DNA of 64,000 nt from Phenylobacterium sp. (GTDB taxonomy: Bacteria > Pseudomonadota > Alphaproteobacteria > Caulobacterales > Caulobacteraceae): NCBI RefSeq assembly GCF_041919955.1, contig NZ_JAYRSU010000008.1, positions 2,943 to 66,942 of the forward strand, in the 5' to 3' direction. Position 1 is the stretch's first letter; every line of letters starts with the position of its first letter. Positions 1-20,509 of the stretch are shown one piece after another. The notes beneath the pieces are model-generated. The model did no database searches. It saw nothing but the letters and a program-made list of their open reading frames with translations, and was not told where the DNA came from. The translations under genes were made by a program, and so were the position numbers.

Positions 1-371
1 TCGGCCGGGTAGCGTTGCAGCGTGCCGCTGAAGAAACGCCCGCCGACAGCCTCGACCGCCCCCTTCAAGGCGCGAACCTGACGCGGACTCCCGGTCACCA
101 GATTGATGAAATCCACTCTGGCGAGTCGAGCGCCCGAGGCGCCTACGGCGGCCTCGACCTCCGCTGTCGAGGCGGTGATGGCGATCACGACGTCGGCGGC
201 GGCGAACAGAGCCGCTGGCGTCTCCACCCATTCGGCCCCAGCGTCGACAAGCGGCGCGGCCCTGGCGGCCGTGCGGTTCCAGACCACGACCGGGCTTCGC
301 ATTTCCAGAAGGCGCGCCGCAATGGCCGAGCCCATGAGGCCAAGCCCCATCACACCGATCGTCTTCGTCAT
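1..371 (-). CDS. NAD(P)-dependent oxidoreductase, imine reductase (IRED)-like / beta-hydroxyacid dehydrogenase fold; 3' end runs off the window
   Basis: Not in the ORF track. Manual translation from ATG at 371: MTKTIGVMGLGLMGSAIAARLLEMRSPVVVWNRTAARAAPLVDAGA...FINLVTGSPRQVRAL...GGRFFSGTLQRYP. GLGxMG and VWNRT Rossmann motifs. Confidence 0.8.
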   Translation of the reverse strand, partial: MTKTIGVMGLGLMGSAIAARLLEMRSPVVVWNRTAARAAPLVDAGAEWVETPAALFAAADVVIAITASTAEVEAAVGASGARLARVDFINLVTGSPRQVRALKGAVEAVGGRFFSGTLQRYPA

Positions 372-646
372 GGTTGCGATTTCCCCAAGCAGGCCGCCAG
401 CAGCGCGGTCGGCCCCTTTGAGCCAGGCGCCGGTCAGGGCATCGCGACGTGAACAGCATCGAGGCGCATCGTCAACGAAATATGATATTTATCGTGTAAT
501 TTTGCGCACAAGTCGCGCACCCGACCTGCATTCAGGAAAATTGCCTGTTCTAGATGGATAATTGTCGCCCTACAGTCAGCGTGCCGACCGCTGCGCGACC
601 AGTCGCAACCACCATAGAGCGCCTAAGCCGAAGGACTGCCGCCGTC

Positions 647-2086
647 ATGACCGATCCGTTCCGACTGGACGCAGCAGCCGGCCAGTTGCTTCGCGCCGGC
701 AAGCCCGCCGAGGCCCTCGCCCTGCTCCGCTCCCGACCTGCGCCGACCCAGGCGTTCGGATTGTCGAGCGCACTGGAACTCGAAGCGCTGATCGCGCTTG
801 GACGTCGCCGGGAGGCCAGAGCGGCCCTCGACGCCGCCCTGACCGTCAAAGAACCGACACCGGACGCTCTGGACGCCCTCGCCTTCTTCGCACGTCAACT
901 GGAACTGCACGACGTCTCCAACCGGCTCTACCAGCGCACGGTCGAGCTCGCCCCGCTCGATCCCAGATACTGGTTCAACCTCGCCACCAGCGAGCGCAGC
1001 CTTGGACGCCTGGAAGCGGCGGCGGACGCCTGCAACCGCGCCCTGGCGCTCGACCCCGATCATCGCGCAGCCCTATTGCTGCGCTCGGAAGTGTCGCGCG
1101 CCACAGCGAGCGCCAATCATGTGGACGACCTGAAGGCCCGGCTGGAGCGACGGCTCCCGCCGGGCGACGAGATCGTTTTCGCCTACGCCCTCGGCAAGGA
1201 ACTCCATGAGCTCGGGCGCTACGATGAGGCCTTCGGAGCTTTCGCCCGCGGCGCGGCCGCCCGGCGCCGCGCTCTCCAGTACGACGTGCGGCAGGACGAG
1301 TTGAAGCTGCAGCGCATTGCAGCAGCGTTTTCGCACGCGCCGCCCCAGCCCCCCCCACTGCCCCCCGGCCGGCACATCTTCATCGTCGGCCTGCCACGGT
1401 CGGGGACGACCCTGACGGAACGGATTCTGGGCGGCCTGCCGAACGTCCGCTCGAACAACGAGACGGACAACGTCTCGACCGCGTTGATGCGCTGGACGCC
1501 TCAAGGACCGGACGACGTGTTCGAGCGCGCCGCCAGGGCCGATTTCGTTCGCATGGGGCAAGACTATGAAGCCTTGGCGGACCTCGACGACTTCAAAGGC
1601 AAGATCATCGAGAAGCTGCCGTTCAACTTTCTCTATGTCGGGGCGATCCTGCGGGCGCTGCCCGACGCCTCGGTGGTCTGGTTGCGCCGCCACCCGATCG
1701 ACAGCTGTTTTGCAATGTTCCGCACACTGTTCGGCGCAGCCTACCCGTTCAGCTACGACTTCGAGGAGCTGGCGAGGTACTTCGCAGCCTACGAACGGCT
1801 GATGGCGCATTGGGTGAACCTCCACCCCCACCGCATACTGCCGGTCGAATACGAGCAGTTGGTCGCCGCGCCGGAGGCGATCGCGCCGCAGCTTGCCAAG
1901 CACTGCGGGCTGCCATGGGACGCCTCAGCGCTTGAGATCAGCCGCAATCGCTCGGCGTCGTTGACGGCAAGCGCGGCCCAGGTGCGCGGGGGCATCTATC
2001 AGTCTTCGTCGGGCATTTGGCGGAGCTACGGAGCGCACCTCCAGCCGCTGGCCGATCTATTGGCGAGGCAGGGCGTCACGCTCTGA
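647..2086 (+). CDS. TPR-repeat sulfotransferase family protein
   Basis: N-terminal TPR-like helices, PAPS-binding loop IFIVGLPRSGTTLTERIL, and EKLP and RHPIDSCFA motifs. Start set at ATG 647 (ORF track starts at 554). Confidence 0.85.
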   Translation: MTDPFRLDAAAGQLLRAGKPAEALALLRSRPAPTQAFGLSSALELEALIALGRRREARAALDAALTVKEPTPDALDALAFFARQLELHDVSNRLYQRTVELAPLDPRYWFNLATSERSLGRLEAAADACNRALALDPDHRAALLLRSEVSRATASANHVDDLKARLERRLPPGDEIVFAYALGKELHELGRYDEAFGAFARGAAARRRALQYDVRQDELKLQRIAAAFSHAPPQPPPLPPGRHIFIVGLPRSGTTLTERILGGLPNVRSNNETDNVSTALMRWTPQGPDDVFERAARADFVRMGQDYEALADLDDFKGKIIEKLPFNFLYVGAILRALPDASVVWLRRHPIDSCFAMFRTLFGAAYPFSYDFEELARYFAAYERLMAHWVNLHPHRILPVEYEQLVAAPEAIAPQLAKHCGLPWDASALEISRNRSASLTASAAQVRGGIYQSSSGIWRSYGAHLQPLADLLARQGVTL

Positions 2087-2105
2087 CCGCGCCGCCATCG
2101 CCGAT

Positions 2106-2137
2106 AAGAAAAGCGGCCCGGAACGTGTCCGGACCGC
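2106..2137 (-). terminator. Rho-independent terminator-like hairpin for the minus-strand TBDR transcript
   Basis: Stem GCGGCCCGGA / TCCGGACCGC (one mismatch), 5-nt loop, and AAGAAAA on the + strand (U-tract on the minus strand). Confidence 0.55.
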
Positions 2138-2190
2138 AAGGGCGACGTCGACAATCGACGCGGGGAGAAAGAGGTTCGCCGTGGGCGACC

Positions 2191-2532
2191 AGAGGCGTTC
2201 AGGCCACGCATGATCTGACGCTGGGCGCCCATGAACTGCGAGCCGCTTGAGGTCACCACCAGGTTTGGCACCTGGCGCGACAGATCCTCTACAGTGGCCA
2301 CGCCGGTGCGCGCGACCTGCGCCGCAGCGACCGCGGTGATGTTGTAGGGGATTTCCGTAACGTCCTGCGCGCGGCGAGCGGCGGTGACGACGACTTCATC
2401 GACGGTCGCGCCTTGTCCCGGCGCGGCTTCCGTCTGGGCGGCGGCGTGACCGCTCGCAATGACCATGAACAGGCCGCTCAGCGCCGACGCGCCGAGGAGC
2501 TGCCTCATTCGACTTTTGCTGTACTCCCGCAC
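2191..2532 (-). pseudogene. TonB-dependent receptor, N-terminal remnant (signal peptide, TonB box, start of plug)
   Basis: GTG start with GGGAGGGA RBS; signal peptide ending HAAAQ; DEVVVTAARRAQDVTEIPYNITAV; RQIMRGLNAS. The reading then runs into non-homologous sequence and the terminator, with no barrel. Confidence 0.85.
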
Positions 2533-2647
2533 GTTTCCCTCCCGAAACCTACGGCGCTACCGAGTTCGCCCTCGTGGCGGAACCCGCTTTCGCAGCGCCA
2601 AGCGACCGCATCGCTAAGCGATTTTTATCAGTTTCACAAAAGATAAA

Positions 2648-2673
2648 TCGAACAAAGATCGATAAAATTTCGC
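2648..2673. promoter_or_regulatory. Phased TCGA-N7-TCGA-N7-TCGC array upstream of the TBDR remnant
   Basis: TCGA ACAAAGA TCGA TAAAATT TCGC in an AT-rich patch. Confidence 0.45.
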
Positions 2674-2849
2674 TTTGTGGCGTAGGCGCCTCGCGCACCG
2701 CCACTTGCGCGGCACATCGGCGGCGATTTGCACGCAAACTCCTCAGCCAGGAGGGAAAAGGGCAAAATTCCGTGTTTTTCGAGAAAATTCCACTCCAAAA
2801 GGTTCGATTGGCCGGGCGCGAGCCGGTGACAGCCGCCCCTTAACCGCTC

Positions 2850-2897
2850 TTGACGCAGATTTCCGTCAAGGCGATGGTCACGATTGAAATCGAATTT
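2850..2897. promoter_or_regulatory. Inverted repeat TTGACG-N8-CGTCAA plus ACGA-N6-TCGA motif upstream of the SDR
   Basis: TTGACG (Caulobacter sigma70 -35-like hexamer) at 2850-2855 and its inverse at 2864-2869; AAATCGAATTT at 2887-2897. Confidence 0.4.
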
Positions 2898-3023
2898 TTT
2901 GCAATATGTAACCGATATCGATTGAATCTAGTGCGGTCGACCGCGACCGCCGGATCGCGACACCAAAGGCACCGCCGGCGCGCCCGCGCCGTCCTGGCTC
3001 AAAAGACAAGGGGACCAAAACCA

Positions 3024-3809
3024 ATGGCCGATCGAGACACCACGGTCCGGCAAATTCCTGCGCCGCTGCAAGGCAAGACCGCGCTCGTCACCGGCGGCAC
3101 GCGCGGCATCGGACGGGGGATCGCGCTGTCGATGGCGGCCGCCGGGGCCTATGTGATCATTTCGGGGCGCGACGAAGCGAACGCCCAGTCCGCGGTCGCT
3201 GAAATCCGCGACGCGGGCGGCCGGGCCGACTATCTGGTGGCCGACCTCTTCGACGAGGCGGCTGTCGACGCCCTGGTGCCGCGGACGATTTCCGAGTTCG
3301 GCGGCCTGGACGTCCTGGTCAACAACGCCGGCATCGACGCGGACGCCCCGGCGCGCGCCTATCCGCTGTCCAGCTGGAAGCGGGTTATGTTCATGAACCT
3401 GGAGGCCCCGTTCCGCCTCTGCATGGCGGCCGGCGAACACTTCTTCGAACGGGGCGGCGGCGCGATCGTAAACATCGCCTCCGTTCTCGGTTCGGTCGCG
3501 ACGGTGGAAGCCGTGGCCTATACGAGCGCCAAGCACGGCTTGCTCGGCCTGACCAAGAACCTCGCCATCGAATGGGCGCGCCATGGAATTCGCGTCAATG
3601 CGGTGGCGCCTGGCCTTATCCAGACCGACATGACCAAGGGCCTGTGGGAAAGTCCGGCCGGGGACGGCTATGTCGCCTCCCGCATTCCCGCCGGCCGGAT
3701 CGGACAGCCGAAGGACATCGGGGCCGCGGTCGTCTTCCTCGCCTCCGACGCCGCCGACTTCATTCATGGCGAGAGCATCACCGTCGACGGCGGCTTCCTG
3801 GCCACCTGA
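3024..3809 (+). CDS. SDR family oxidoreductase (KduD/gluconate 5-dehydrogenase-like)
   Basis: TGGTRGIG, NNAG, YTSAK (YxxxK) and VNAVAPG motifs. ATG 3024 follows a GGGGA RBS. Confidence 0.92.
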   Translation: MADRDTTVRQIPAPLQGKTALVTGGTRGIGRGIALSMAAAGAYVIISGRDEANAQSAVAEIRDAGGRADYLVADLFDEAAVDALVPRTISEFGGLDVLVNNAGIDADAPARAYPLSSWKRVMFMNLEAPFRLCMAAGEHFFERGGGAIVNIASVLGSVATVEAVAYTSAKHGLLGLTKNLAIEWARHGIRVNAVAPGLIQTDMTKGLWESPAGDGYVASRIPAGRIGQPKDIGAAVVFLASDAADFIHGESITVDGGFLAT

Positions 3810-3869
3810 CTGCGCCCTGGAGCCGCTCGGGTCGCCGCGGCGGCCCGGGCCAACCGTTCTGGAGGTCCC

Positions 3870-4682
3870 ATGCAGGCGCCCGCCCCGATCCCCGAAACAA
3901 GCAGGAAGAAGCGGCGCGCCTCACCGCGCCAGCCGTCACGCGGTCGCGGGCTGGCGCGCTATGCTGCGCTTCTGGACGCGGCCCACGACCTCCTCAAGCG
4001 GGAGGCGCCCGACGCCATCGGCCTCTATCAGATCGCCGAGCGGGCCGGCGTACCGCCTGCGTCGGCCTATCACTTCTTTCCGACCAAGGAGGCCGCCTAT
4101 GTCGGCCTGGCGGAACGCTATTGTGACGAGATCGTGCGCATTCACAGCGTGCCGATCCCAGCCCGCGACATTGCGAACTGGCAGGACGTGTTTCGCATCG
4201 ATCTGAGGCGGGCGATGGCCTATTTCAACAGCGAGCCTTCGGCCATGAAGATCCTCTACGGCGGCTACGGCGGCGTAGAGGCGCGGAACATCGACAAGAT
4301 CTTCTCTCGCAAGCTCGCCCAAGCGAACTACAGCCGCCTCGACAAAATCTTCCACATGCCGGTCATGCGCGACGCGGAGAAGAAATTCGAGCTCCGCCTG
4401 GCGATCCTCGACAGCATCTGGGAGGTGTCTGTTCGCCGGCACGGGCATATCACCGAGGACTACTTCACCGAGGCGCTGGACGCCTGCAACGCCTACATCC
4501 GACTGTTTCTGCCAGAACATCTGGAACCACGGGAGATCCTGGTGCGCGCCATGGAGCGCGACGCCGTGGTCCATCTTCATCTTCCCGGCGACCAGATCGA
4601 GATTTCACCACGGGACATCGAACTGGAGCATTGGAATGGCGATGACGGGCCGAGCCCGCCACCGCCCTTCGCCTATTCGTAG
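3870..4682 (+). CDS. TetR/AcrR regulator, paralog 1
   Basis: [31 protein letters not shown]-domain KILYGGYGG is shared with the 7382 and 13568 genes. Confidence 0.9.
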
Positions 4683-5629
4683 TCGATGGCGAAGCTGTAC
4701 TTCGGGTCGTAGTGGGCCTCCCAATAAGACTCCCAGACCTGACGGGTGATCGGCCCGACTTGGCCGCCCCCGACCGGTTGACCGTCGAGTTCTGTGATCG
4801 GCATGACCCCGCCTGCGGTCGTGCAGATGAAAATCTCGTCGGCATGGTAGAGCGCGTCCACCGGCACATAGGTCAGCTCGGCCTTGATCCCCTTGGCGGC
4901 GGCGATTTCCAGGACCGTGCGGCGGGTGACCCCTTCGAGCACGCCACGCGAAGGCGTCGTGAGCGCCCCGTCCCTGACCACGAAGATGTTGTATCCGCCG
5001 CCCTCGGTGATGTTTCCGTCCCCGTCCGGAAGCAGGGAATAGACCGCACCGCGATCCATGGCCTCAAGCCAGCCGCGTACGAAGTCGCCCCACTGCAGGT
5101 TCTTGATCGTCGGGTCCATAGCGCCCGGCGGCGTGCGGCGGACCGTCCGCGTGACGACCGCCTTGCCGCCCGTCGGATGAAGCTGCGGCGGCATCGCCCA
5201 GACGTAGGGCATGACCATCAGGTACAGGCTGTTTTCATAGCTTTGATACTCGCGAATGAACTTCAGGCCGCGCGTGACGATGAGCTCGACATAGGCGTCG
5301 CGGATGCCGCTCTTGACCACCATCTCGATGAGGGTCTTGCGGACGCTCTGGCGATCCAGCGGGATGCGAAGCCGCATCTTTTCGCAGCTTGCTTCGAGGC
5401 GATCGAGGTGATCGTCGAGGCGGAAGAAGCGCCCGTCCCAAACCGCGGGAACATCGTAGGTCAGGTCCGAGCGCAGGAAGCCCTGATCAAGGATCGGGAT
5501 TCGCGCCTCCGCCAGCGGGTAGAGTTCCCCCTGGATCCAGGCCACGCCCCCGGCCAGCGGATTCTCAGACACCTCGAGCGCGCTCCGGCGCGCCTCGTGC
5601 GCTCCAAGCACCTTCTCCATCGAGTACAT
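4673..5629 (-). CDS. PLP fold-type IV aminotransferase, (R)-selective amine transaminase type
   Basis: [30 protein letters not shown] (PLP Lys), LEGVTR, TTAGG. N-terminal helix MYSMEKVL...NPLAGG and C-terminus YSFAIDY resemble fungal R-ATAs as I recall them. Confidence 0.93.
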
Positions 5630-5657
5630 GGCCTTCTCCCGATCGCCCAGAAAATAG

Positions 5658-5734
5658 TCGTCAAATATCTACGATTATGACGAACGATGGCCAATCAAGG
5701 AGAAAATTTCAACACTAAAGTCGTCAATTATCGA
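5658..5734. promoter_or_regulatory. TCGT-N6-TC(G/T)A motifs upstream of the R-ATA
   Basis: TCGT CAAATA TCTA (5658) and TCGT CAATTA TCGA (5721). Confidence 0.5.
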
Positions 5735-5800
5735 ATAATTTGGGACTGGCAGCGGGCTGCACCGGCTGCGGGCGCATTCCCTCCCGCAGCCAGCCAACAA

Positions 5801-7108
5801 TCATTGGCTTGCGGGGGTCTGAACGGGCGCGGCCTGACGGCCAGCGGGCAGCGCCAGGCTGCAGATGGCGGCCGGCAGGTAGACAAGCGCCACAAAGACC
5901 AGGAAGCCGGAGGGGCCCAGATGGTCGAAGCTCCAGCCCGCGAGGCTTCCGCCCGCCGCGTAGCCGGCCTGCAAGGCGAAGTACCATCCGCCATAGGTCA
6001 CGGGAAACACCGCGTCCCCGAACTGGCGTCGGGTGAGCGTGATCCAGAGGACCTCGCCGGCGCCGAAGGCGAAGCCGAGAGCGAGCGCGCCGGCCCCTGC
6101 GAGGATCACGCTCCGGCTCTCAGGGGCGAGCGCCAGGGCAAAGACGCCAAAGCTGATCGCCGCCACGATCGCCAGCGCGCTCCACCTCGCGTTGAAGCGG
6201 TCGAGCATCCAGCCGATCGCGACCGAGCCCGTCGTGCTCCCGCCGGCGGTCATCCCCAGCAGAGTCGCCGCAGCAGCCGGCGAGAAGTGCGCGCGCCGCA
6301 ACAGCGCCAGCTCCTGGGTCAGGACGGCGATCGAAGCCATGCCGGCGCCGATCACCGCGACGAACATGCAGCCAGCCACCCACGGATTGATGGCTTTCAC
6401 GTCGCCGGACTGGGTATTGCCCGACTCGCCGCGCGCCGTCCGCGCGCCGTCGATCTCGCGCGCGGCGATCGGGTCGCCGTCCAGGCCCAGCCCCATCTCC
6501 GTCGGCGACGATGGACCGCGCGACAGGAGCGAGATGGCCACGGCGACCGCCAGAAGGCCGCCGGCGACGACCAGCGTCGCCGGCCGCCATCCCAGCGTCA
6601 GAACCAGCGCCTCAGTGGCCGGTGAGAGGGCCAGTCCGCCGGTCGAACCCCCGGCCCAAACCAGGGCCATGGCTGTGGCAAACCGCCTGGAGAACCAGCG
6701 GGCCGTCAGCATCGGGACAGCCGCGATCGCGAGGACCTTGCCGAAACCCATGACGATGCGCAGCAGATAGAGCTGCCAGAATTCCGTGACGAAGATCAGG
6801 GAGGCCAGCACCAGCGCTTCGGCGCAGAGACCGAACAGGATCAGGCCCCATGGGCTGAAACGCCGCGTCAACGGGCCATAGAACAGCGCCAATGGAGCGA
6901 CCAGCCACATCGCCGAAACGAGGCCGCCGGTTTGCGCCGCGCTCCACCCGTGCTCCTGAGCTAGGGGCTGGGCGACCACGATGAACGAATAAATGCTGGA
7001 GCCGAAGATCGCGAACGTACAGAGGAAGAGCGCCAGAACGACGCGCCATCCGAAGTAGACGCCACGCCCCAAGGACATCGACGCCGCCGCCGGCGGATAT
7101 TCCGTCAT
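5801..7108 (-). CDS. MFS transporter (OFA-like)
   Basis: About 12 hydrophobic segments; YFGWRVV N-terminus; ARWFSRRFATAMAL and GWMLDRFNAR motifs. Confidence 0.9.
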   Translation of the reverse strand: MTEYPPAAASMSLGRGVYFGWRVVLALFLCTFAIFGSSIYSFIVVAQPLAQEHGWSAAQTGGLVSAMWLVAPLALFYGPLTRRFSPWGLILFGLCAEALVLASLIFVTEFWQLYLLRIVMGFGKVLAIAAVPMLTARWFSRRFATAMALVWAGGSTGGLALSPATEALVLTLGWRPATLVVAGGLLAVAVAISLLSRGPSSPTEMGLGLDGDPIAAREIDGARTARGESGNTQSGDVKAINPWVAGCMFVAVIGAGMASIAVLTQELALLRRAHFSPAAAATLLGMTAGGSTTGSVAIGWMLDRFNARWSALAIVAAISFGVFALALAPESRSVILAGAGALALGFAFGAGEVLWITLTRRQFGDAVFPVTYGGWYFALQAGYAAGGSLAGWSFDHLGPSGFLVFVALVYLPAAICSLALPAGRQAAPVQTPASQ

Positions 7109-7381
7109 GCCGCTTTCCTCCCTCAGGGTCGTTCGCCCCGTTTGCGCGACTAGTATCGTCGCGCCACACAGAAAGTCGACAAAATTTGGCTTATTCCGGA
7201 CATTCGCAGATATTTTGAGCGAATTTGCGCATATATGTCGATTTTTATACAGACCAGGTGCAACCTGGACGAAGGCCTCGCCATGCAGCCCTGACCGCCC
7301 CAGGCCCGCATCCTCGGACCCCCAAGGGTTGCCGGGGAACGGCGATGCCGTTTAGCTCAGGCGCGAGGAGAGGAGACCTTG

Positions 7382-8131
7382 ATGCCGAGTCCGACCACCG
7401 CTGACGACGGCGCCTCCAAGCGCAAGCGCCGCGAAGGGCCGCGGACGCCGTCGCGCGGCCGAGGGGTCGCGCGGTACGGGGCGCTGCTGGACGCTACGGA
7501 GGCCCTGCTTCAGGTCGAGAACCCCGACACCATCGGTCTGTATCAAATCGCCGAACAGGCGGGCGTTCCACCTGCTTCGGTTTACCACTTCTTTCCCACA
7601 AAGGAGGCGGCGTATGTCGCCTTGGCTGAGCGCTACCTCGAAGGCCTGATGGAGGTTCACCGCGCGCCGATCGAGGCCCGTCTGCTAGGCGGATGGCAGG
7701 ACCTGCTGCGGATCGATTTCCGGCGGGCGATGGAGTTCTACAACGCCCGGCCGCCCATGAATAAGATTCTCTATGGCGGCTACGGGGGAATTGAGGCGCG
7801 CAACATCGACAAGCTGTTCTCCCTGAAACTGGCGAACGCGCACTACGATCGGCTGGACCGCATCTTCCATATGCCCTTCATGCGCAATCCCGGCGCCTTC
7901 TTCGAGAACCGCCTTGGAATCCTGGACGCGCTCTGGTCGATTTCGGTGCGTCGCTACGGCAGCATCACCGAGGAGTATCTCCTCGAAGCGCAGAGAGCCT
8001 GCAGCGCCTATACGCTGGTCTACCTCCCGCAATATCTCGAACCGCGCGAGTTGCTGGTCGAGGCCGCCGCGCGCGGCGAGGCGTTGACCCTGGCGTTCGA
8101 CCTGCCGGCGCAGGACGAACCCGCGGCCTGA
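7382..8131 (+). CDS. TetR/AcrR regulator, paralog 2
   Basis: [46 protein letters not shown] upstream; TTG 7379 is an alternative start. Confidence 0.9.
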   Translation: MPSPTTADDGASKRKRREGPRTPSRGRGVARYGALLDATEALLQVENPDTIGLYQIAEQAGVPPASVYHFFPTKEAAYVALAERYLEGLMEVHRAPIEARLLGGWQDLLRIDFRRAMEFYNARPPMNKILYGGYGGIEARNIDKLFSLKLANAHYDRLDRIFHMPFMRNPGAFFENRLGILDALWSISVRRYGSITEEYLLEAQRACSAYTLVYLPQYLEPRELLVEAAARGEALTLAFDLPAQDEPAA

Positions 8132-8254
8132 ACCTGCCGCCAGGATGACTTGCACGTCGCCGCTGTGAGAGGGCGCCCGTCCCCGACGTCGCTCATTCGC
8201 CAAACCGCACAAGATGCTGCACGCCAGCGCAATGAGGCCTGCGTGGCCGCATTC

Positions 8255-8344
8255 AAATTCGATTTATTTCGATTAAATATCGACCTTCACCGCGAAAACC
8301 TATTGATGGAGATGAAAAAATAAAATTTCATCGACAAAACTCGG
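8255..8344. promoter_or_regulatory. Phased TCGA array upstream of the second MFS gene
   Basis: TCGA at 8259, 8269 and 8280 (10-11 bp period), plus TCGA CAAAAC TCGG at 8331, in a very AT-rich patch. Confidence 0.55.
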
Positions 8345-8359
8345 TGCGCCTCGGGGGTC

Positions 8360-9562
8360 ATGGCTGTGCAGCAATCTGTCGATCTGGCCCAGGAGACCGC
8401 CCCGTCGCAGCGATCGGTGGACGCGCCGTCCGCCGTCGTTGCAGCGGCATACCTCATCGCCCTCAACCAACTGGTCGCGAACATCCAACCGCTGCTGCTG
8501 GGTGCGCTTGCGACGGATTATGGCTTGAGCGACCGACAGCTCGGCCATGTGAGCGCATTCTACGTCGGCGCAGTCACCCTGTGCACCTTGTCGGCTCCAT
8601 TGTGGATCCGCCGGATCAACTGGCGCCTGGCCACGCTCGTATCCGTCGCAGGCTGCGTCGCGGCCTTCGCCTGGGGCGCGACGCTGAACGGCGTGGGGAT
8701 GTTCCTCTTGCTGTTCGCCATCCTGGGCTTTGCGAAGGGCTTCTTCGGCGCCCCCGCGTTCGCCAGCCTCGGCGACGGTTCGAATCCTGACCGCGGCTAC
8801 GGGCTGTCCACCGTGCTGCAAAGCCTGATCGCCGCGGGCGCGGCGGCTCCAGTGGCGAGCTACATCATTCCGACCTACGGTGTCAGGGGCCTCTTCATTT
8901 CACTCGCCCTCGTCTACGCTACCGGGATCGTGGCCGCGCGGTGGATGCCAGTCGGCGCGCGCTCGCCGCGTGCGGCAAGCCTGAGCCCCGCCGAACCCGG
9001 AGAAGCATTGCTGTCTTGGGCGGCCATTCCGCCCCTGGTCGCGGGGTTCGCCGTCGCGCTGTTCGCCGGAGGGATTCTGGCTTTCTGGTATTTCGTCGAA
9101 CGGATCGGCGTCGCGCGCGGCGTGCCCGCACAGACCATCGGCCTGACCATCAGCCTGGCCGCTTTCGCTTCAATTCTCACCTCGGCGATCAACACCTGGC
9201 TGGGGGGCCGCGTACCGAGCCTTGCGTTCGTCGCCGCCGGGACGGCGCTGCTCCTGGCCTCCTACGCGGTTCTGCTCGTCCCGGGCGATCTGGCCTTTGT
9301 CGCCTGCAACCTGCTGTTCGCCCTCGGCTGGGGGTTTGCGCAGCCGGCCTACTGGACGATCGTCCGCAGGGTCGATCATACGGGGCGGCTGTTTGTGGCG
9401 GCTCCCGCCGCCTCTGGCGCCGCCGGCGTCGCCATCGGAATCTTCGCCGGGCCGGTGATCGAGTCGGGCGGATACTCCGGACTGATAGGCCTCAGCTCGG
9501 CGCTGATCGCGGCGGCCATCCTCTGCATCGTCGGCGTGCTGCGCTTTGCGGCGGCTCGCTGA
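8360..9562 (+). CDS. MFS transporter
   Basis: About 12 TM segments; PLLLGALATDYGLS...WIRRINWR, same subfamily pattern as the MFS domain fused to the P450. Confidence 0.9.
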   Translation: MAVQQSVDLAQETAPSQRSVDAPSAVVAAAYLIALNQLVANIQPLLLGALATDYGLSDRQLGHVSAFYVGAVTLCTLSAPLWIRRINWRLATLVSVAGCVAAFAWGATLNGVGMFLLLFAILGFAKGFFGAPAFASLGDGSNPDRGYGLSTVLQSLIAAGAAAPVASYIIPTYGVRGLFISLALVYATGIVAARWMPVGARSPRAASLSPAEPGEALLSWAAIPPLVAGFAVALFAGGILAFWYFVERIGVARGVPAQTIGLTISLAAFASILTSAINTWLGGRVPSLAFVAAGTALLLASYAVLLVPGDLAFVACNLLFALGWGFAQPAYWTIVRRVDHTGRLFVAAPAASGAAGVAIGIFAGPVIESGGYSGLIGLSSALIAAAILCIVGVLRFAAAR

Positions 9563-9598
9563 TCGGGTTCGCCGATCAGCGCCGTCGAGGCAGCCTGG

Positions 9599-10447
9599 CT
9601 AGTTCAGCAAAGTGATCGGGTCGACCATCTGCCCGTCCACCTCGACCCAGCCCATGTGATTGACGCCTGACGACCAGCCGAGCAGGCGCTGAATTGTCTC
9701 CGGATAGCTGGCCACGACGTCGCGCGACAGCGCCAGGTACATGTTCTCCTCCTGGCGGACATTGGCCGCATCGATCGTGATCGTCAGGCCGGTCCTTAGC
9801 TGGTCGGAGGTCGTGTTGGTCCCGCCGGCGTGATAACAGCTGCCGACGAACAGCAGCGCCGACCCGGACTTCATGATCGTGGGGCGGGCCTCCGACATTT
9901 TCGGGACGCGCTCGTCATCCCAAAGGTGGCTGCCCGGAATAACCAGCGTGCCGCCGTTCTCGGCGGTGAAGTCGGATATCGCCACCATGACCTGGAGGCG
10001 CGCCTCGCGGCCATAGGTCGGATGTCGCCAAAGGAAGGCCGTATCGTCCCGATGCAGCGGCTGGGCTCCCTGGCCGGGCCCGATCTGAATGAGCTGGGTC
10101 ACGCCGATCCGAATGCCGGGATAGAACTCCCGCCTCTGGTCTCCCGCCCCGTAGACCACCGGCCGATTGATCAGCGCTTCGGCTACCGGAAGATATAGGG
10201 GGTGCGTGGCGACGTCGGCCATGCGACGCGAGTGGGCGAAGAGCGCGCTCATCCGCTTGGTCTGAGCGCCCGAAAAGGGATCCCCGCCCGTCGATTTCGC
10301 CGCCAGCTTCGGCAGCAGATCCGCTTTCAGTTCGGAGATCGTTTCCGCGGGGAGAAAGTCCTCGATGATGACTCCTCCATCGCGCTCGAGGATCGCCAGG
10401 ACGTCCTGGGCGGTCGACGCCGCGGTCACCCTCTCGACTTCAGCCAT
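9599..10447 (-). CDS. Phytanoyl-CoA dioxygenase (PhyH) family Fe(II)/2OG dioxygenase
   Basis: QPLHRDD (HxD), AISDFTAENGGTLVIPGSH, CYHAGG (distal His). Confidence 0.92.
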   Translation of the reverse strand: MAEVERVTAASTAQDVLAILERDGGVIIEDFLPAETISELKADLLPKLAAKSTGGDPFSGAQTKRMSALFAHSRRMADVATHPLYLPVAEALINRPVVYGAGDQRREFYPGIRIGVTQLIQIGPGQGAQPLHRDDTAFLWRHPTYGREARLQVMVAISDFTAENGGTLVIPGSHLWDDERVPKMSEARPTIMKSGSALLFVGSCYHAGGTNTTSDQLRTGLTITIDAANVRQEENMYLALSRDVVASYPETIQRLLGWSSGVNHMGWVEVDGQMVDPITLLN

Positions 10448-10521
10448 GACAGTTCACTCCCCTACGGGCGGGCCGGCCAGACACGCCAATCAAACATCGT
10501 TAGTCGCGCTACCGCGACACA

Positions 10522-12051
10522 TCAGACCGTTTCCGAGGATGCGCGCAGGACCTGCGCAGCAGCCTGGCCGTCATATCGGAAGGCGGGACCGTCCAGGTCG
10601 ATCGCCGGAAAGGCTTCCTTGTCGGCCAGATAGTCCTGGCTATGGCGCCATTCGGGATGATCCAGGCTGCGCGGAAGTTGCGGTAGCGCGCGGGTCAGGT
10701 AGCCCGGATTGAAGTTCTCGGGGTCGATCCACGGTCGCCGCGGCAGACGATCGACGTCCGACGGCGGCGAGACCTCCACCCAATTGGCGCCCCGCGCATC
10801 GAGGTGCTCCAGCAGCCGGATCACGAACTGGGCCAACAGGTCCGAACGGAGCGTCCAGCTGGATCGGAAATAGCCGAACACCCAGGCGAGGTTCGGCAGG
10901 CCGCTGAACATCATGCCGCGATAGCCGACGCTGCTCGCGATATCGAAAGGCGCCCCGTCGACCGTAAAGGCGATGTCGCCGAAGACATTCATGTTGAAGC
11001 CGGTGGCCGCGATCACGACGTCCGCCGCCAGGGTCCGGCCTGACTTCAACAGCACTCCGTCGGGAACGAACCGCTCGATCTCGTCGGTGACCATGGCGGC
11101 GCGCCCGGCGCGGATCGCGTGCAGCATGTCGGCGTTCGGCAGGAAGGCCAGGCGCTGGCGCCAGGGCCGGTAGCTGGGCGAGAAGTGCGCCCGCGTGATC
11201 TCCGGCCCTACGATGGCTTCGACCGCCGCCAGCAGCTCGGCGCGGACCTCGTCGGGCGTATCGCGGCAACTGTCCGCGAGCGCAGCCTCCTGGGCGAGGA
11301 TGTCGCGCCGTACGATTTCGTGGATCCAGGCCTCGTCGACTTTCAGCGCCCGCAGCCGATCGGCGAGCTCATTGCTGTTGTCGGCATAGGCGAAATAGGT
11401 CGGCGAGCGCTGCAGCAAGGTGGTTTCCGCGCAGGTCTCGGCGATGTTCGGAACGATGGTCGCCGCTGTCGCGCCCGACCCCACCACCACGACCTTCTTG
11501 CCGGCCAGATCGAGGTCGTCGGGCCACTCCTGGGCGTGCACCAGCCGGCCCGCGAAGTCGGCTTTACCTGGCCAATCGGGCATATGGCCTTCGCGATGGC
11601 GAAAGTATCCCTGGCACATGAACAGGAAGCGGCCGGTGAATACGCGGACGCCGCCATCCGCGGTCTCGGCGATCACCGTCCAGAGGCCCGCCTCGCTGCT
11701 CCATCGCGCGTCCGCTACGCGGTGGCCGAAGCGCATGTGGCGGCGCAGATCGTTCTCGTCCACCGCTTCGCTCAGATAGTTCAGGATCTCCGCCCCTGTG
11801 GCGATCGGAGGGCCCGACCACGGCTTGAACCCGTAGCCGAAGGTGTAGAGGTCGCTGTCCGACCGGATCCCCGGGAAACGGTTGGTGCGCCAGGTTCCCC
11901 CGAACGAGGCCTCCGCATCCAGGATAACGAAGCTCCGTTGCGGCGCATCGCGTCGCAGGTGATAGGCCGCGGCGATCCCGGAGATCCCCGCCCCGACGAT
12001 CAGGACCTCAAAGTGCTCCGGCTTGGCCGCATCGGCGATCTGCGCGCTCAT
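10522..12051 (-). CDS. Flavin monooxygenase / Baeyer-Villiger monooxygenase, EthA/AlmA type
   Basis: GAGISG, FPGIRSDSD, BVMO fingerprint FAGRLVHAQEWP, GSGATA, LQRSPTY. ATG 12051; TTG 12060 is an alternative start. Confidence 0.92.
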   Translation of the reverse strand: MSAQIADAAKPEHFEVLIVGAGISGIAAAYHLRRDAPQRSFVILDAEASFGGTWRTNRFPGIRSDSDLYTFGYGFKPWSGPPIATGAEILNYLSEAVDENDLRRHMRFGHRVADARWSSEAGLWTVIAETADGGVRVFTGRFLFMCQGYFRHREGHMPDWPGKADFAGRLVHAQEWPDDLDLAGKKVVVVGSGATAATIVPNIAETCAETTLLQRSPTYFAYADNSNELADRLRALKVDEAWIHEIVRRDILAQEAALADSCRDTPDEVRAELLAAVEAIVGPEITRAHFSPSYRPWRQRLAFLPNADMLHAIRAGRAAMVTDEIERFVPDGVLLKSGRTLAADVVIAATGFNMNVFGDIAFTVDGAPFDIASSVGYRGMMFSGLPNLAWVFGYFRSSWTLRSDLLAQFVIRLLEHLDARGANWVEVSPPSDVDRLPRRPWIDPENFNPGYLTRALPQLPRSLDHPEWRHSQDYLADKEAFPAIDLDGPAFRYDGQAAAQVLRASSETV

Positions 12052-12142
12052 ATTCGACAATTGTCCGCAATGCTGACGAAGCGGCGGCGCCGGCCTGAAA
12101 AAAGCCCGCAGGCGCCGCTGCGAGAAGGGTTCTCAGGCGCGC

Positions 12143-13036
12143 CTACAGCGCCAGATGCTCTTCCAGAGGCCGCGTATGGGCTCGCCACAGGAAGCCGGGC
12201 TGCTCGCCCTTGTAGGAGATCGAGCGGAACCCGAGGTAGGACTGCAGGCGCTGCGGGTAGGTCCGCGCCTCGTCCGCCGTGATGACATGCGGCCACGCCT
12301 CTTCACCCAGGATGATCCCGGGGCTGAACGCGGTCGACAGCACCCGGCGTCGCCGATCCTTCGTGACGTTGGCGCCGCCGCCGTGCAGCACCTTGCCGCT
12401 GATGCAGAGCACGTCGCCGGGGAACATGGTCGCCGGAATGGTCTGGGACTGTTCTCCCGGCGTCTCGTAAGATTCCCAGTGGTTGCTGCCGGGGATCACG
12501 CGGGTCGCGCCCATTTCCTCGGTGACGTCGGTCAAGGCCAGCAGGAAGTTGACCTGGAGATTCGGACCGCCGGGGCCGCCGACGCCGAGGACCTCCATCA
12601 GGCCGCCGCCATCGCGGTGCAGTTCCTGGGGCCGCTCGCCGGGATAGATCTCGATCCCGTGGCTCGCATACATCGTATGGCTCCCCGCCGGCCCCGGCAT
12701 CATCGCAGCCAGATACTCCCGGATGATCGGTGCGTCGTAAAAGGCCTCCCGCAGGGTGCGGCTGTATTTGACGCAGTGGGCCAGGCGCTTGGTCTTGTGG
12801 CCCATGAAGTCGCCGACGAAGGTCTGTCCGCCATCCGAGAAATTGCCGCCCGCCAACCGATCGAACTCGCGGTCGAGATCGGCGTTGATCGCGGCCACCT
12901 CGGCCGCCGAGAGGGCGGCGGTCAGGATGACGCCTCCCTCCAGTTCGACGACGGCGGCGACCTCTTCGGCCGGCGCCCCGAACGGCAGGCGGCGCATGGT
13001 GGCCGAGGGGCGCGCGGAGACGGCGTTCTGGGACAT
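12143..13036 (-). CDS. PhyH family Fe(II)/2OG dioxygenase (second copy)
   Basis: QELHRDG, ALTDVTEEMGATRVIPGSNHW, VLHGGGAN. Start set at ATG 13036. Confidence 0.92.
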   Translation of the reverse strand: MSQNAVSARPSATMRRLPFGAPAEEVAAVVELEGGVILTAALSAAEVAAINADLDREFDRLAGGNFSDGGQTFVGDFMGHKTKRLAHCVKYSRTLREAFYDAPIIREYLAAMMPGPAGSHTMYASHGIEIYPGERPQELHRDGGGLMEVLGVGGPGGPNLQVNFLLALTDVTEEMGATRVIPGSNHWESYETPGEQSQTIPATMFPGDVLCISGKVLHGGGANVTKDRRRRVLSTAFSPGIILGEEAWPHVITADEARTYPQRLQSYLGFRSISYKGEQPGFLWRAHTRPLEEHLAL

Positions 13037-13097
13037 GTCATTCAAACTCCATTGGAGATCAGATGGGGGCATGGAGATCGCGCACCGCGCCCGGCAC

Positions 13098-13550
13098 TCG
13101 ACAAAAATCGTATGGGGAAGCACTCGGCTTCTGACTCGAAAGCCCACGCCGGTCGGGCCGCCCCTTCACGGCCGCGCCGGGGAATCTCACCGTCATAATA
13201 TTGATCCCAGGGGACAAAATGCCCACCGTCGACGGCCTTTTCATCTCGCGCGTATGGCCGGGACTGCAAGACGCCATGTGAGACCCTCAGCGAGTTTCTC
13301 CCGCTCCTGAAACTGATAGAAAATCAATTTAAATCGAATTTCAAGCGGTTCTTGAGCTTTTCAAAGAATAGCGAGCCGCGCCCACGCTCAGCGCCGGGGC
13401 GCGGCCCCACGCGGCGCCCAGCGCACGCCGCAGCCAATCCGCCTCACGAAGCACGAGCCGACAGCCCGCAGACGCGACCCAAGGCCTGAATTCTTGCCAA
13501 GTTGACGACTTTCCGCCATCTCAGACCGCAGGATAGTTGAATAATATCGA
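13098..13550. promoter_or_regulatory. Three TCGA-N6-type motifs in the divergent PhyH2/TetR3 intergenic region
   Basis: TCGA CAAAAA TCGT (13098), TCAA TTTAAA TCGA (13324), TTGA ATAATA TCGA (13537). Confidence 0.5.
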
Positions 13551-13567
13551 GTGGAGAGACTTGCAGG

Positions 13568-14314
13568 ATGGGGACATCGGACGCCGCCGCGGGGAAGGAG
13601 ACAAAGCCTCGCCGACGCGAAGGTCCGCGCACGCCGTCCCGCGGCCGGGGCCTGCTTCGGTTCAACGCGCTGCTGGACGCGACTGAGAGCCTGCTGCAGT
13701 CGACCAACCCGGACGAGATCGGTCTCTACCAGATCGCCGAGCGAGCCAACGTTCCGCCGCCGTCCGCTTACCACTTCTTTCCGACCAAGGAGGCGGCCTA
13801 CGACGCCCTGGCCCAGCGCTTCATAGTGCAGTTGCTGGACGTCCACAGGACGCCTATCGAAGCGCGCCGCCTGAACAACTGGACCGACCTGTTCCTGATC
13901 GACATCGACCGCGGCCGCGCCTTCTACAATCGCCACCCGCCGGCGCTGAAGATCTTCTACGGCGGCTATGGCGGCGTGAACGCCAAGAACATCGACCGGA
14001 TCGCGGCCGACAAGATCTCGACCTCGAACTACGACCGCATGAACCGCGTCTTCCACATGCCGATCCTTAGCGACACCCATCGCCTGTTCGAAGTGCGCCT
14101 GGGAATCCTCGACGCCATATGGACCCTGTCGGTGCGTCGCCACGGCTACATCACCCAGGACTATCAGGATGAAGCTGTGGAGGCGTGCCTGGCCTATAGC
14201 CGCGTCTACCTGCCGGCCCGGATCGAACGACGCGGCTCGTTGATCCAGGCCGCAGAGCGCGGGGAGAGCGTTACACTGCCCTTCGAGCCGAGCGCCGACG
14301 AACTGGAAGCCTAA
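13568..14314 (+). CDS. TetR/AcrR regulator, paralog 3
   Basis: [39 protein letters not shown]. Confidence 0.9.
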   Translation: MGTSDAAAGKETKPRRREGPRTPSRGRGLLRFNALLDATESLLQSTNPDEIGLYQIAERANVPPPSAYHFFPTKEAAYDALAQRFIVQLLDVHRTPIEARRLNNWTDLFLIDIDRGRAFYNRHPPALKIFYGGYGGVNAKNIDRIAADKISTSNYDRMNRVFHMPILSDTHRLFEVRLGILDAIWTLSVRRHGYITQDYQDEAVEACLAYSRVYLPARIERRGSLIQAAERGESVTLPFEPSADELEA

Positions 14315-14328
14315 CTGCGCCGCACCGC

Positions 14329-19427: not shown

Positions 19428-20075
19428 ATGAGCGACATCGATTTGGCGAAGGCGAATCCGCGAGCGCGGAGGAGCCATGAGGCGGCGGCGGATTCACGGA
19501 GCGTGAGCGAGAAGATCCTCGACAGCGCCGAGATCGTTCTGCGGCGCCACGGCTATGCGGGCTTCTCGACCCGGCGCGTCGCGCAGGAGGCGGCGATTGC
19601 GTTGGGCAACCTCACCTATCACTATCCGACCAAGCCTGAGCTCGTCCAAGCGCTGATCAGCCGGCTGATCACGCGCTATCTGGATCGCTTTCAACAAGTC
19701 CTCAGGACGCCTGGGCGCGGTGTGGAGGATCTGGTTCGCTGGCTGCTGGAAGAGGCCGTCGCAGAAGAAGCGATGTGGCTGTTTCGCGAACTCTGGGCCA
19801 TGGCCCTGCATGACGAGATCGTGCGCGAAGCGATCGACGACCTCTACGATGAGCTGATGGGCAAGGTCGCCGCGACGCTGGAGGCCGCCTACCCCTCGGC
19901 GGACCCGCAGGCCGTGCGGGACCTCGTCCAATTCATCGCCCTGATCTCGGAGGGCAGCACGGTGCTCTACGGGACGAGACGATCCAGGGTCACGCCTCGC
20001 CAACGGATGATCGACCTCGCCGTGCGCCTCACCTCCGTGATCGCGCCCGAACTGGCGCCGGGCGGCGCGTCGTGA
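19428..20075 (+). CDS. TetR/AcrR regulator, divergent from the P450 operon
   Basis: HTH FSTRRVAQEAAIALGNLTYHYPTK. Confidence 0.92.
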   Translation: MSDIDLAKANPRARRSHEAAADSRSVSEKILDSAEIVLRRHGYAGFSTRRVAQEAAIALGNLTYHYPTKPELVQALISRLITRYLDRFQQVLRTPGRGVEDLVRWLLEEAVAEEAMWLFRELWAMALHDEIVREAIDDLYDELMGKVAATLEAAYPSADPQAVRDLVQFIALISEGSTVLYGTRRSRVTPRQRMIDLAVRLTSVIAPELAPGGAS

Positions 20076-20382
20076 GAAAGCGTCGATAGAGACTCGCCGA
20101 CCCCAAACTGCGCGCACCGCCAGCGCAAAGCCTTATCTGTGTTGGCGCAGGTTTGAACTGGCCACTTCGAAGCTTAAAGCTGGCCCTGGCGGAACCTAGT
20201 CCAGCCGCGAATCAGCGTGCGATCTCAATCCGTTAGCCAGGCCTAGAGCCACCGTCCTCGCGAGTTCAACGCAGGTCTCGCGGAGGTTGGCGAAGCCTGG
20301 GGCGCAACGCTCGGGCAGCTCGGCCCTATTCGCCCGACAAGTGGGAATTCGGAGCGCCGACCCGCGCCCTTCTCCAGGGACT

Positions 20383-20463
20383 TGGCGGGAATTCCCGCGC
20401 CCGTCTCCGACCGGGAAAGCTGCACCCCGGTTTCCCTGCTTATCAGGGAAGAACAGGGAGTTT
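20383..20463. repeat. Intergenic CCCGTCTC...TTCCCTG-N5-CAGGGAA...CAGGGA element
   Basis: Perfect inverted repeat TTCCCTG / CAGGGAA (20432-20450) and direct repeat CAGGGA (20454). It recalls a recurring alphaproteobacterial island-end motif (from memory, unverified). Confidence 0.4.
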
Positions 20464-20509
20464 CTCAAGGGCACGAAGGATGGCGCTGGCGCGCCGCGCC
20501 CGCGACGCC

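Follow-up and report, generated by a model that had tools for sequence, protein, structure and literature searches.

A TetR-associated gene island around an R-selective amine transaminase in Phenylobacterium sp., related to the fumonisin cluster and possibly devoted to amine catabolism

R-selective amine transaminases (R-ATAs) and imine reductases (IREDs) are workhorses of industrial chiral-amine synthesis, and we know of no natural substrates for either class. The question of what such enzymes do in the organisms that carry them is raised by a 64,000-nt stretch of the genome of Phenylobacterium sp. (contig NZ_JAYRSU010000008.1, positions 2,943 to 66,942 of the forward strand; the whole stretch is hereafter called the window), where an R-ATA gene and part of an IRED-like gene are found together with three TetR regulators. 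An earlier note had described positions 1-14314 of the window as a candidate catabolic regulon for chiral or cyclic (alkaloid) amines. In the present analysis, real genes were distinguished from spurious open reading frames (ORFs) by third-position G+C (GC3) and then annotated with Pfam and NCBIfam, with Pfam matches being counted only above the curated cut-off. Every gene listed in the note was recovered as a GC3-supported ORF with an above-cut-off Pfam match. The span may represent the greater part of an inducible island that serves the uptake and catabolism of a primary amine or vicinal amino alcohol from outside the cell, probably lipophilic and with a CH3-CH(NH2)-R head, a reading to which we give an even chance of being correct. 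We infer the substrate class, the order of the steps and the direction of flux; the head itself would resemble that of 1-deoxysphingoid bases and hydrolysed fumonisins.

The transaminase (318 aa, 4673-5629 on the reverse strand) belongs to fold type IV, with a match to Aminotran_4 (PF01063) of 158.8 bits against a cut-off of 28.5. When compared to structures in the Protein Data Bank (PDB), it scores 631 bits, at approximately 86% identity, against 9k35, which is named '(R)-selective transaminase', and 435-495 bits against thirteen further R-ATA structures, including the fungal 6xwb, 4ce5 and 4cmd. Scores against the other fold-IV groups are at most 175 bits for BCAT, at most 105 bits for D-amino-acid transaminases and 68 bits for ADCL. 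The fingerprint of R-ATAs, reportedly set out by Hohne et al. in 2010, comprises H/R..Y-x-V, (F/Y)-V-E, a flipping Arg and a catalytic Lys and Glu, and the signature residues seen in the alignment are LR53SDLTY58DV60, AY113VE115, FIR126E, TIK176NLQWGD and NITE209GGG. Fold, bit scores and signature residues all agree with the identification made in the earlier note, and by every sequence criterion the class IV aminotransferase is an R-ATA. The same signature residues occur in the known R-ATAs of Aspergillus terreus (4CE5), Thermomyces stellatus (6XWB) and Shinella (PMC8048526), as well as in 9K35. These enzymes are known as biocatalysts acting on artificial amines, whereas the enzyme of the window lies within a conserved, regulated island. 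Neither the natural role nor the gene neighbourhood of R-ATAs is discussed in the paper on the Shinella enzyme (PMC8048526). Identity to the fungal R-ATAs, as read from the alignment, is roughly 65-70% (494 bits to 6xwb and 475 bits to 4ce5), and such unusually high identity between a bacterium and fungi suggests a transfer between kingdoms.

The putative regulators of the island are encoded on the forward strand by TetR-1 (270 aa, 3870-4682), TetR-2 (249 aa, 7382-8131) and TetR-3 (248 aa, 13568-14314), each of which contains a TetR_N domain. TetR-2 and TetR-3 share 59% and 53% identity with TetR-1, in accordance with the paralogy previously claimed, and the three are unrelated to two further TetRs of the window at 19.4-21.2 kb (19-21% identity). 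The recognition helix hardly varies across the family (LYQIAE.AGVPPASVYHFFP), as would be expected if a single operator were shared. The PDB matches of the TetR profile comprise 3bni as the best, at 57 bits, and others that cover the N-terminal domain only, with no solved structure near the ligand domain among them.

A candidate operator has been found in other genera. Exact palindrome counting was swamped by GC-rich noise, and the motif emerged from instances of TCGAT-N4-ATCGA, after which a matrix of 25 columns was derived from 12 sites, all of them from other genera and none from the window. The TCGATwwwwATCGA-type motif lies in AT-rich intergenic DNA of these genera, often 10-50 nt before the R-ATA start, as in L020, L034, L035, L037, L041 and others (L-numbers designate the compared loci from other contigs and genomes). 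When the matrix was applied to the window, 10 sites were found above threshold, all of them intergenic and all between 476 and 13,555, with no site above threshold in the remaining 50 kb. Every transcription unit of the island has at least one site, and the result was unchanged with a uniform background. The shared intergenic motif that had been noticed by eye in this span is thus borne out by a matrix from outside it. Two sites (5652-5676 and 5715-5739, reverse strand; scores 19.5 and 21.5) lie 23-110 nt upstream of the R-ATA start, and two more (8254-8278 and 8316-8340, forward strand; scores 28.2, among the two best of the window, and 21.1) lie upstream of the second MFS gene. The divergent region between the first MFS gene and TetR-2 contains a site with the core CTGTATAAAAATCGAC (7232-7256, reverse strand), and another precedes the second PhyH gene (13319-13343, forward strand; score 28.5). 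A site located 13 nt upstream of TetR-3 (13531-13555, reverse strand) suggests that this regulator may control its own expression. The remaining sites are upstream of the SDR start (2907-2931, forward strand; score 16.8), between the remnant of a TonB-dependent receptor (TBDR) and the SDR gene (2612-2636, reverse strand; score 18.0) and, as a weak match, in the divergent promoter region of the IRED-like and sulfotransferase genes (476-500, reverse strand; score 16.3). In other loci, sites precede R-ATA, DadA, receptor, MFS, aminotransferase, thioesterase, BVMO and P450 genes. The motif and the TetR family co-occur with an odds ratio of 8.2 (p = 2e-4) among loci that are not independent of each other. 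Co-regulation of the island is proposed from this motif rather than from expression data. A scan for consensus sigma-70 promoters gave matches no more numerous than in shuffled sequence.

Two synteny surveys indicate that the gene set is not confined to this strain. One was anchored on the R-ATA and covered neighbours within 10 kb in 80 species-level genomes, while the other was anchored on the TetR family, independently of the R-ATA, and covered 44 metagenome loci of at least 8 kb each. In the first survey, a class III aminotransferase of the FumI type lies near the R-ATA in 48 of the 80 genomes, being directly adjacent on the same strand in 26, and the other neighbours include this TetR family (23 genomes), an SDR (17), the pair of receptor and sulfotransferase (8) and PhyH (6). 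In the second, 31 of the TetR loci have a TBDR gene, 28 have a sulfotransferase gene, 22 encode a FumI-type aminotransferase, 13 an R-ATA and about 12 a PhyH protein. Nearly the whole gene set is present in loci from Caulobacterales and Hyphomonadaceae (L013-L016). Loci from Sphingopyxis comprise an R-ATA, an MFS carrier, a sulfotransferase, a receptor, two TetRs and a second MFS carrier, to which an acyl-CoA dehydrogenase, a DadA-type dehydrogenase, RidA, another 2-oxoglutarate dioxygenase, a thioesterase and a P450 are added. The DadA-type D-amino-acid dehydrogenase beside the R-ATA (664 bits against a cut-off of 383) occurs in 11 loci of a Sphingomonadales/Caulobacterales clade (L008-L016, L020, L023) and a RidA-family imine hydrolase in 6, and neither is found in the window. 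Genes for hydroxyacyl-CoA dehydrogenase, acyl-CoA dehydrogenase and thioesterase also occur in sister loci. A further module has been found in Rhizobiales, Rhodobacterales and Dongia (L034, L045, L048, L056, L059, L073 and about 30 more), where the adjacent FumI-type aminotransferase and R-ATA are accompanied by a family-5 ABC binding protein, a fused E1 (35 of the 80 loci), an AcoC-type E2, a 3-oxo-tetronate kinase, a class II aldolase and an acyl-CoA dehydrogenase.

The genes had been taken in the earlier note to form a functional unit, a claim that was to be given up if their homologues were never neighbours elsewhere. Homologues are neighbours in both surveys, the gene set recurs in other genera across the Alphaproteobacteria, a conserved operator-like site precedes each unit and the recognition helix is shared, all of which supports the claim. 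Another metagenome contig (VFQM010000019.1, with L102, L109 and L111, and VFQO010000016.1) carries three TetRs of the family within approximately 50 kb, each of them beside receptor, sulfotransferase or aminotransferase genes, so that the multiplication of the regulator is not peculiar to the window.

A connection to a characterised pathway is provided by the class III aminotransferase, which in intact alleles scores 620 bits against PDB 6hbs, the 'aminopentol aminotransferase' FumI of Sphingopyxis sp. MTA144. The closest characterised system, the fumonisin (fum) cluster of that strain, is deposited as GenBank FJ426269 (Heinl et al. 2010). FumI acts at C2, beside the terminal methyl, where it transfers the amino group of hydrolysed fumonisins B1, B2 and B3 to pyruvate and leaves a 2-ketone (PMC3136697). 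A canonical copy of the cluster (L088), reached via a homologue, was used for comparison. It contains genes for a zinc-dependent alcohol dehydrogenase (Zn-ADH), a tricarballylate carrier, CitB, a TcuA-like flavoprotein, a carboxylesterase, LysR, TetR, an MFS carrier, the aminotransferase, a TBDR and a thiamine diphosphate (TPP) enzyme. The aminotransferase of the cluster is 66% identical to the class III enzyme of the island, and its TetR is 46-47% identical to the three TetRs of the window over approximately 213 residues (E 1e-55 to 1e-66; 46% and 1e-55 for TetR-1). The two systems also share a layout of TonB-dependent receptor, MFS carrier and divergent promoters, as well as an operator-like core in an intergenic region, since the divergent MFS/aminotransferase region of the fum cluster has the site core CTGTATAAAAATCCAC, near-identical to CTGTATAAAAATCGAC at 7232-7256 of the window.

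Nonetheless, there are clear differences. The receptor and MFS carrier of the fum cluster are not orthologous to those of the island (no tblastn match), and the cluster has one TetR and a LysR where the island has three TetR paralogues. The Zn-ADH has no counterpart in the island, which for its part goes beyond the cluster with the R-ATA, three PhyH enzymes, a Baeyer-Villiger monooxygenase (BVMO), an SDR, the IRED-like gene and a TPR-sulfotransferase. No match to the fumonisin carboxylesterase FumD was found in the window or the 44 TetR loci, with two weak matches (30-32% identity) in the 80 R-ATA loci, and no matches to the tricarballylate genes or the TPP enzyme were found in the window, the 44 TetR loci or the 80 R-ATA loci. 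Judged by these comparisons, the island is a relative of the fum cluster and not a member of it.

Two facts about this copy had been overlooked, namely that the island extends to the left of the window and that it is partly decayed. A 1.44-Mb metagenome contig (L001) encodes exactly the same R-ATA protein and is 97.6-98.8% identical to the window over 15.6 kb. Further to the left it carries genes for a full-length 285-aa IRED-like oxidoreductase, a 429-aa class III aminotransferase and a third PhyH, and an intact 808-aa TBDR is found at the site of the window's remnant. In the window, the first ~108 codons of the receptor are left (2185-2508, reverse strand), as located by blastn against L001 and by tblastn of TBDR residues 1-108. 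The remnant lies in a short ORF (2026-2532, reverse strand) with a Plug fragment, and blastn against L001 shows 2,142 bp to be missing at the junction 2192/2193, so that the receptor had rightly been called a remnant. In three metagenomes, from lake, soil and wastewater, contigs are interrupted precisely at 2192/2193, which indicates the intact allele, and an activated-sludge contig (L090) spans the junction, which indicates the deleted one. L090 is 100% identical to positions 1-5118 and reaches 473 nt further left, where it reveals a second deletion of 1,366 bp with its junction 121 nt left of the window. This deletion cuts the IRED-like gene after codon 164, before its NVLDAS stretch, and removes the first 247 codons of the class III (FumI-like) aminotransferase. 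The receptor, IRED-like and FumI-like genes are pseudogenes in this strain, so that at best a reduced pathway of R-ATA, BVMO, PhyH, SDR and MFS is left. Surviving genes differ from those of L001 mostly at synonymous positions (pN/pS 0 to 0.31). As a decaying copy, this genome would be a poor experimental model.

A scheme can be proposed for the intact island. The TonB-dependent receptor would import the compound over the outer membrane and the MFS carriers over the inner membrane. The first carrier (435 aa, 5801-7108, reverse strand) is of the oxalate/formate or monocarboxylate type, with a Pfam MFS_1 match and a weak NCBIfam match to an L-lactate MFS transporter, and the second (400 aa, 8360-9562, forward strand) also matches MFS_1. 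The outer-membrane receptor and the fatty-acid-type genes of the sister loci together point to a substrate that is large or lipophilic. The FumI-type class III enzyme and the fold-IV R-ATA, for which opposite stereopreference is predicted, would pass the amino group to pyruvate and leave a methyl ketone, and either epimer of CH3-CH(NH2)-R could be deaminated by the pair. The small pocket of R-ATAs takes little beyond methyl, and since the amine carbon attacked by either aminotransferase family has a small group beside it, joint deamination to a methyl ketone would be expected. In sister loci of the closest clade, the DadA-type dehydrogenase and RidA would return pyruvate from the D-alanine made by the R-ATA, with the release of ammonia, and their presence beside the R-ATA is a strong hint of deaminating flux. 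The catabolic, deaminating role formerly proposed for the R-ATA fits these two genes as well as the receptor and the MFS transporters.

Substrates with a 3-hydroxyl, of the fumonisin or 1-deoxysphingoid type, would yield an acyloin, and the BVMO would convert ketone or acyloin to an acetate ester. This enzyme (509 aa, 10522-12051, reverse strand) has a flavin monooxygenase match, two Rossmann motifs (VGAGISG and VGSGATA) and both type I fingerprints, GGTWRTNRFPGIRSD and FAGRLVHAQEWP (patterns FxGxxxHxxxW(P/D) and (A/G)GxWxxxx(F/Y)P(G/M)xxxD), by which its earlier naming as a BVMO can be refined to a predicted type I enzyme. Its PDB matches are limited to the N-terminal 250 residues. The adjoining of a TetR and an approximately 500-aa BVMO recalls the EthR/EthA pair of Mycobacterium tuberculosis, a TetR repressor and a type I BVMO, and EthR is among the N-terminal-only PDB matches of the TetR profile. 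However, the ligand-binding domains are unrelated and, unlike in EthR/EthA, the BVMO here is one of eleven genes and rare in sister loci. By analogy, carbonyl-adjacent cleavage may be common to three types of locus, being carried out by the BVMO here, by the TPP enzyme in the fum cluster and by an acetoin-dehydrogenase-like complex in Rhizobiales.

The SDR (261 aa, 3024-3809, forward strand; adh_short_C2, 216 bits), which was also called as 261 aa in L001-L007 and is probably co-transcribed with TetR-1, would serve with the PhyH dioxygenases in oxidation or hydroxylation of the chain. The IRED-like enzyme would handle cyclic imines formed spontaneously from amino-ketone intermediates. The three TetR repressors would occupy TCGATwwwwATCGA-type sites before every unit and be released by the substrate or an intermediate. 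The functions of the SDR, the PhyH enzymes and the IRED-like enzyme are guesswork here, and that of the TPR-sulfotransferase most of all.

Several observations weigh against reading the island in this way. The FumI family is very large (5,143 of 8,000 scored candidates at E <= 1e-60), and the 66% identity to FumI leaves the substrate unfixed; no substrate can be read from the sequence. Fumonisin itself was rejected as an unlikely substrate, given that the esterase, the tricarballylate genes and the TPP enzyme are absent. BVMO genes occur in 3 of the 80 R-ATA loci, and the IRED-like gene in 6, with clear orthologues (44-51% identity) in 3 and weaker ones (~30%) in 3 more; this rarity argues that the later steps do not constitute a conserved pathway. 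Regarding regulation, it is predicted rather than observed that the TetRs bind the motif, which partly overlaps TTGACG-like sequences and may in those cases represent mere -35 promoter boxes. Several Mesorhizobium loci have the motif before the R-ATA without such a TetR within 10 kb; the nitroreductase that adjoins the R-ATA there was considered as an alternative regulator and rejected, not being a regulator. Transcript support is limited to two cDNA-like contigs from public RNA runs, both of them short and both on the R-ATA. The sulfotransferase, which resembles peptide-tyrosine sulfotransferases, has no place in the scheme. Finally, conservation across the locus family is highest for the trio of TetR, receptor and sulfotransferase, which may serve a purpose other than amine use, with the aminotransferases as add-ons.

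The same genes can be arranged into a regulon that acts on alkaloid amines, cyclic or chiral, for instance piperidines, pyrrolidines and indolizidines, along the lines of the earlier note. PhyH would hydroxylate or demethylate, the IRED-like enzyme would interconvert amine and imine, the R-ATA would deaminate the ring-opened amino ketone and the BVMO would cleave the product. The chemistry is coherent, and it is the reverse of known transaminase-IRED cascades. The intact IRED-like orthologue (L001 17403-18260, 285 aa) contains NAD_binding_2 (PF03446, 64 bits) and RedAm-like_C (PF21761, 44.8 bits against a cut-off of 27), the same two domains as in imine reductases and reductive aminases (e.g., 3ZHB and 5G6R), and its NVLDAS is aligned with the Asp of IRED-type chains (9kbb ...alhDla...). 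No Lys is found in its GADAAIPNVLDAS stretch, the expected place of the catalytic Lys of beta-hydroxyacid dehydrogenases, for which imine reductases have Asp or Tyr. Nonetheless, identity to imine reductases is only ~30-35%, and the nearest structures have generic names only (NAD(P)-dependent oxidoreductase, hypothetical protein). The window itself contains 123 codons of the 5' part of the gene, which matches NAD_binding_2 and runs off the left end (1-371, reverse strand). In this strain the gene has the NAD_binding_2 part without RedAm-like_C and, unlike imine reductases, stops before the catalytic region. The designation of an IRED-like reductase is therefore supported by the full-length orthologue, while the gene of this strain is truncated.

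The PhyH enzymes also have a bearing on the alkaloid scheme. PhyH-1 (282 aa, 9599-10447, reverse strand; Pfam PhyH, 106 bits) and PhyH-2 (297 aa, 12143-13036, reverse strand) are predicted Fe(II)/2-oxoglutarate dioxygenases, and PhyH-2 is 53% identical to the third PhyH found left of the window in intact alleles. Pfam scores for the family members are 82-106 bits, and all three paralogues have the HxD...H iron triad and the 2-oxoglutarate-binding Arg (H132, D134, H206 and R218) without any substitution. Among solved structures, those closest to them are dioxygenases of fungal secondary metabolism (DhiD, SwnH1/2, EasH, PrhA and AsqJ), among which SwnH1 and SwnH2 act in the swainsonine pathway and EasH in that of ergot alkaloids. 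Identity to these alkaloid enzymes is ~30%, however, and the same lists hold meroterpenoid and quinolone enzymes. The IRED-like, PhyH, R-ATA and SDR genes occur together in L010, L013, L015 and L149, but the IRED-like gene is present in few loci overall (the 6 R-ATA loci given above and 2 of the 44 TetR loci) and is truncated here. The scheme depends on the two components found least often, the IRED-like gene and the BVMO, and on the ~30% similarity of the PhyH enzymes. Moreover, the sole characterised relatives, the fum aminotransferase and TetR, act on an open-chain aminopolyol, and the fatty-acid-type genes of sister loci suit an alkyl chain better than a ring. Nothing points specifically to an alkaloid or cyclic amine, and the kinship with the fum cluster favours open-chain amines or amino alcohols that bear a methyl beside the amine; we regard this regulon as unlikely. 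The accompanying claim, that the locus gives a physiological context to two enzyme classes known from biocatalysis, holds for the R-ATA, which lies in a conserved island; the IRED-like gene is a minor accessory and truncated here.

It is also conceivable, but rather improbable, that the TetR, TBDR and TPR-sulfotransferase core is an uptake or signalling module for another ligand, such as a sulfated peptide or a scarce nutrient, to which the amine genes are loosely attached through a shared regulator. The sulfotransferase (479 aa, 647-2086, forward strand) is a predicted cytoplasmic protein with a Sulfotransfer_3 match of 148 bits, the PAPS-loop GLPRSGTT and a protein-binding TPR domain, and it shows a distant likeness to protein-tyrosine sulfotransferases (PDB TPST matches of ~35 bits). 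In marine metagenome contigs (L157-L162), TetRs that are only ~30% identical stand beside homologues of the TPR-sulfotransferase and the receptor without any aminotransferase, and the enzyme content of the loci in general varies widely. Against a separate core stands the distribution of the motif, which precedes aminotransferase, DadA, MFS and dioxygenase genes and not the receptor alone. The fum cluster, furthermore, has the same TetR family and motif with amine catabolism and without the sulfotransferase, and a FumI-type aminotransferase is present in half of the TetR loci.

That the genes tailor and export a secondary metabolite produced elsewhere in the genome, with an aminating transaminase and exporting MFS carriers, is very improbable: the R-ATA is close to fungal enzymes (~65-70% identity, read from the alignment), the nearest solved relatives of PhyH are fungal biosynthetic dioxygenases and TetR and MFS pairs often signify efflux, but no polyketide synthase, non-ribosomal peptide synthetase, terpene cyclase or other core enzyme was found in the window or the sister loci, the TonB-dependent receptor means import, DadA and RidA by the R-ATA fit D-alanine removal in the deaminating direction, and the characterised relative is catabolic. 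A biosynthetic gene cluster proper was likewise rejected, the window containing no core enzyme.

Returning to the amine-catabolic island, a broader proposal may be put forward, though we consider it tentative and on balance doubtful. The natural job of R-ATAs in Alphaproteobacteria could be the deamination of lipid amines derived from alanine, with an S-selective FumI-type partner in the same operon or island so that either C2 epimer is used, and with DadA and RidA recycling D-alanine in the closest clade. A TetR family and a conserved operator would be dedicated to the system, and the resulting ketone or acyloin would be cleaved in one of three interchangeable ways, by a BVMO, a TPP enzyme or an acetoin-dehydrogenase-like complex. 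Candidate substrates would be 1-deoxysphingoid bases, fumonisin-like aminopolyols and their relatives. The pairing of R-ATA and FumI-type enzyme and the link to the fum cluster provide a concrete, testable context, and cultured strains with intact loci exist, for example Sphingopyxis soli BL03 and Phenylobacterium sp. VNQ135. The comparisons also show that the fum cluster, which is used for a commercial mycotoxin-detoxifying enzyme, is a single specialised member of a large and varied group of loci under TetR control, in which enzymes against other sphingoid-like toxins could be sought.

Concerning the genomic setting, the G+C content of the window is 63-73%, with the island (63-66%) being a few points under the remainder (mostly 67-73%). 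Stretches of 100 nt with a G+C content below 52% number 58 in positions 1-14400 and 3 in positions 14400-64000, and they may reflect regulatory regions or a foreign origin of the island. The nearest relatives of the individual proteins are from Sphingopyxis, Phenylobacterium and Caulobacteraceae, and the organism occurs in metagenomes from activated sludge, lake water, soil and wastewater. Two terminator-like elements have been located, a hairpin of high G+C with a run of T where the sulfotransferase and TBDR genes converge (2113-2137, no strand assigned) and a hairpin between PhyH-2 and the BVMO (12105-12124, reverse strand). Between PhyH-2 and TetR-3 (13037-13567; L002 2350-2586) gene callers predict a small ORF of 72-78 aa without a Pfam match, which adjoins the strongest operator-like site and is a candidate gene in this 530-nt region.

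The rest of the window contains ordinary chromosomal genes, encoding a PQQ alcohol dehydrogenase (PQQ-ADH), a ferredoxin, a P450, receptors, GH20, gamma-glutamyltranspeptidase, an RND pump and others. When the locus was followed to the right through the ferredoxin gene, the one contig recovered ended at that gene. The PQQ-ADH, a quinohaemoprotein of 689 aa with Pfam PQQ and cytochrome c domains, lies just outside the reported span (14329-16398, reverse strand). In 3 of the 44 TetR loci a homologue of 46% identity lies no more than 8 kb from the regulator gene, 2 more have weaker matches of 35%, and the enzyme is a possible associate of the island. The cytochrome P450 gene (16824-19270, reverse strand) is apparently split by a frameshift near 18.80-18.82 kb, with homologue residues 40-189 in one frame and 185-437 in another, and its 3' part continues stop-free into the ORF of an MFS transporter. 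Either the assembly is in error here or the neighbourhood of the island has suffered a third lesion. Beyond it, the two TetR genes unrelated to those of the island lie at 19428-20075 and 20510-21202, and an intact TonB-dependent receptor gene at 21367-23760 precedes one for a GH20 hexosaminidase; the stretch 19428-23760 has the appearance of a separate uptake locus.

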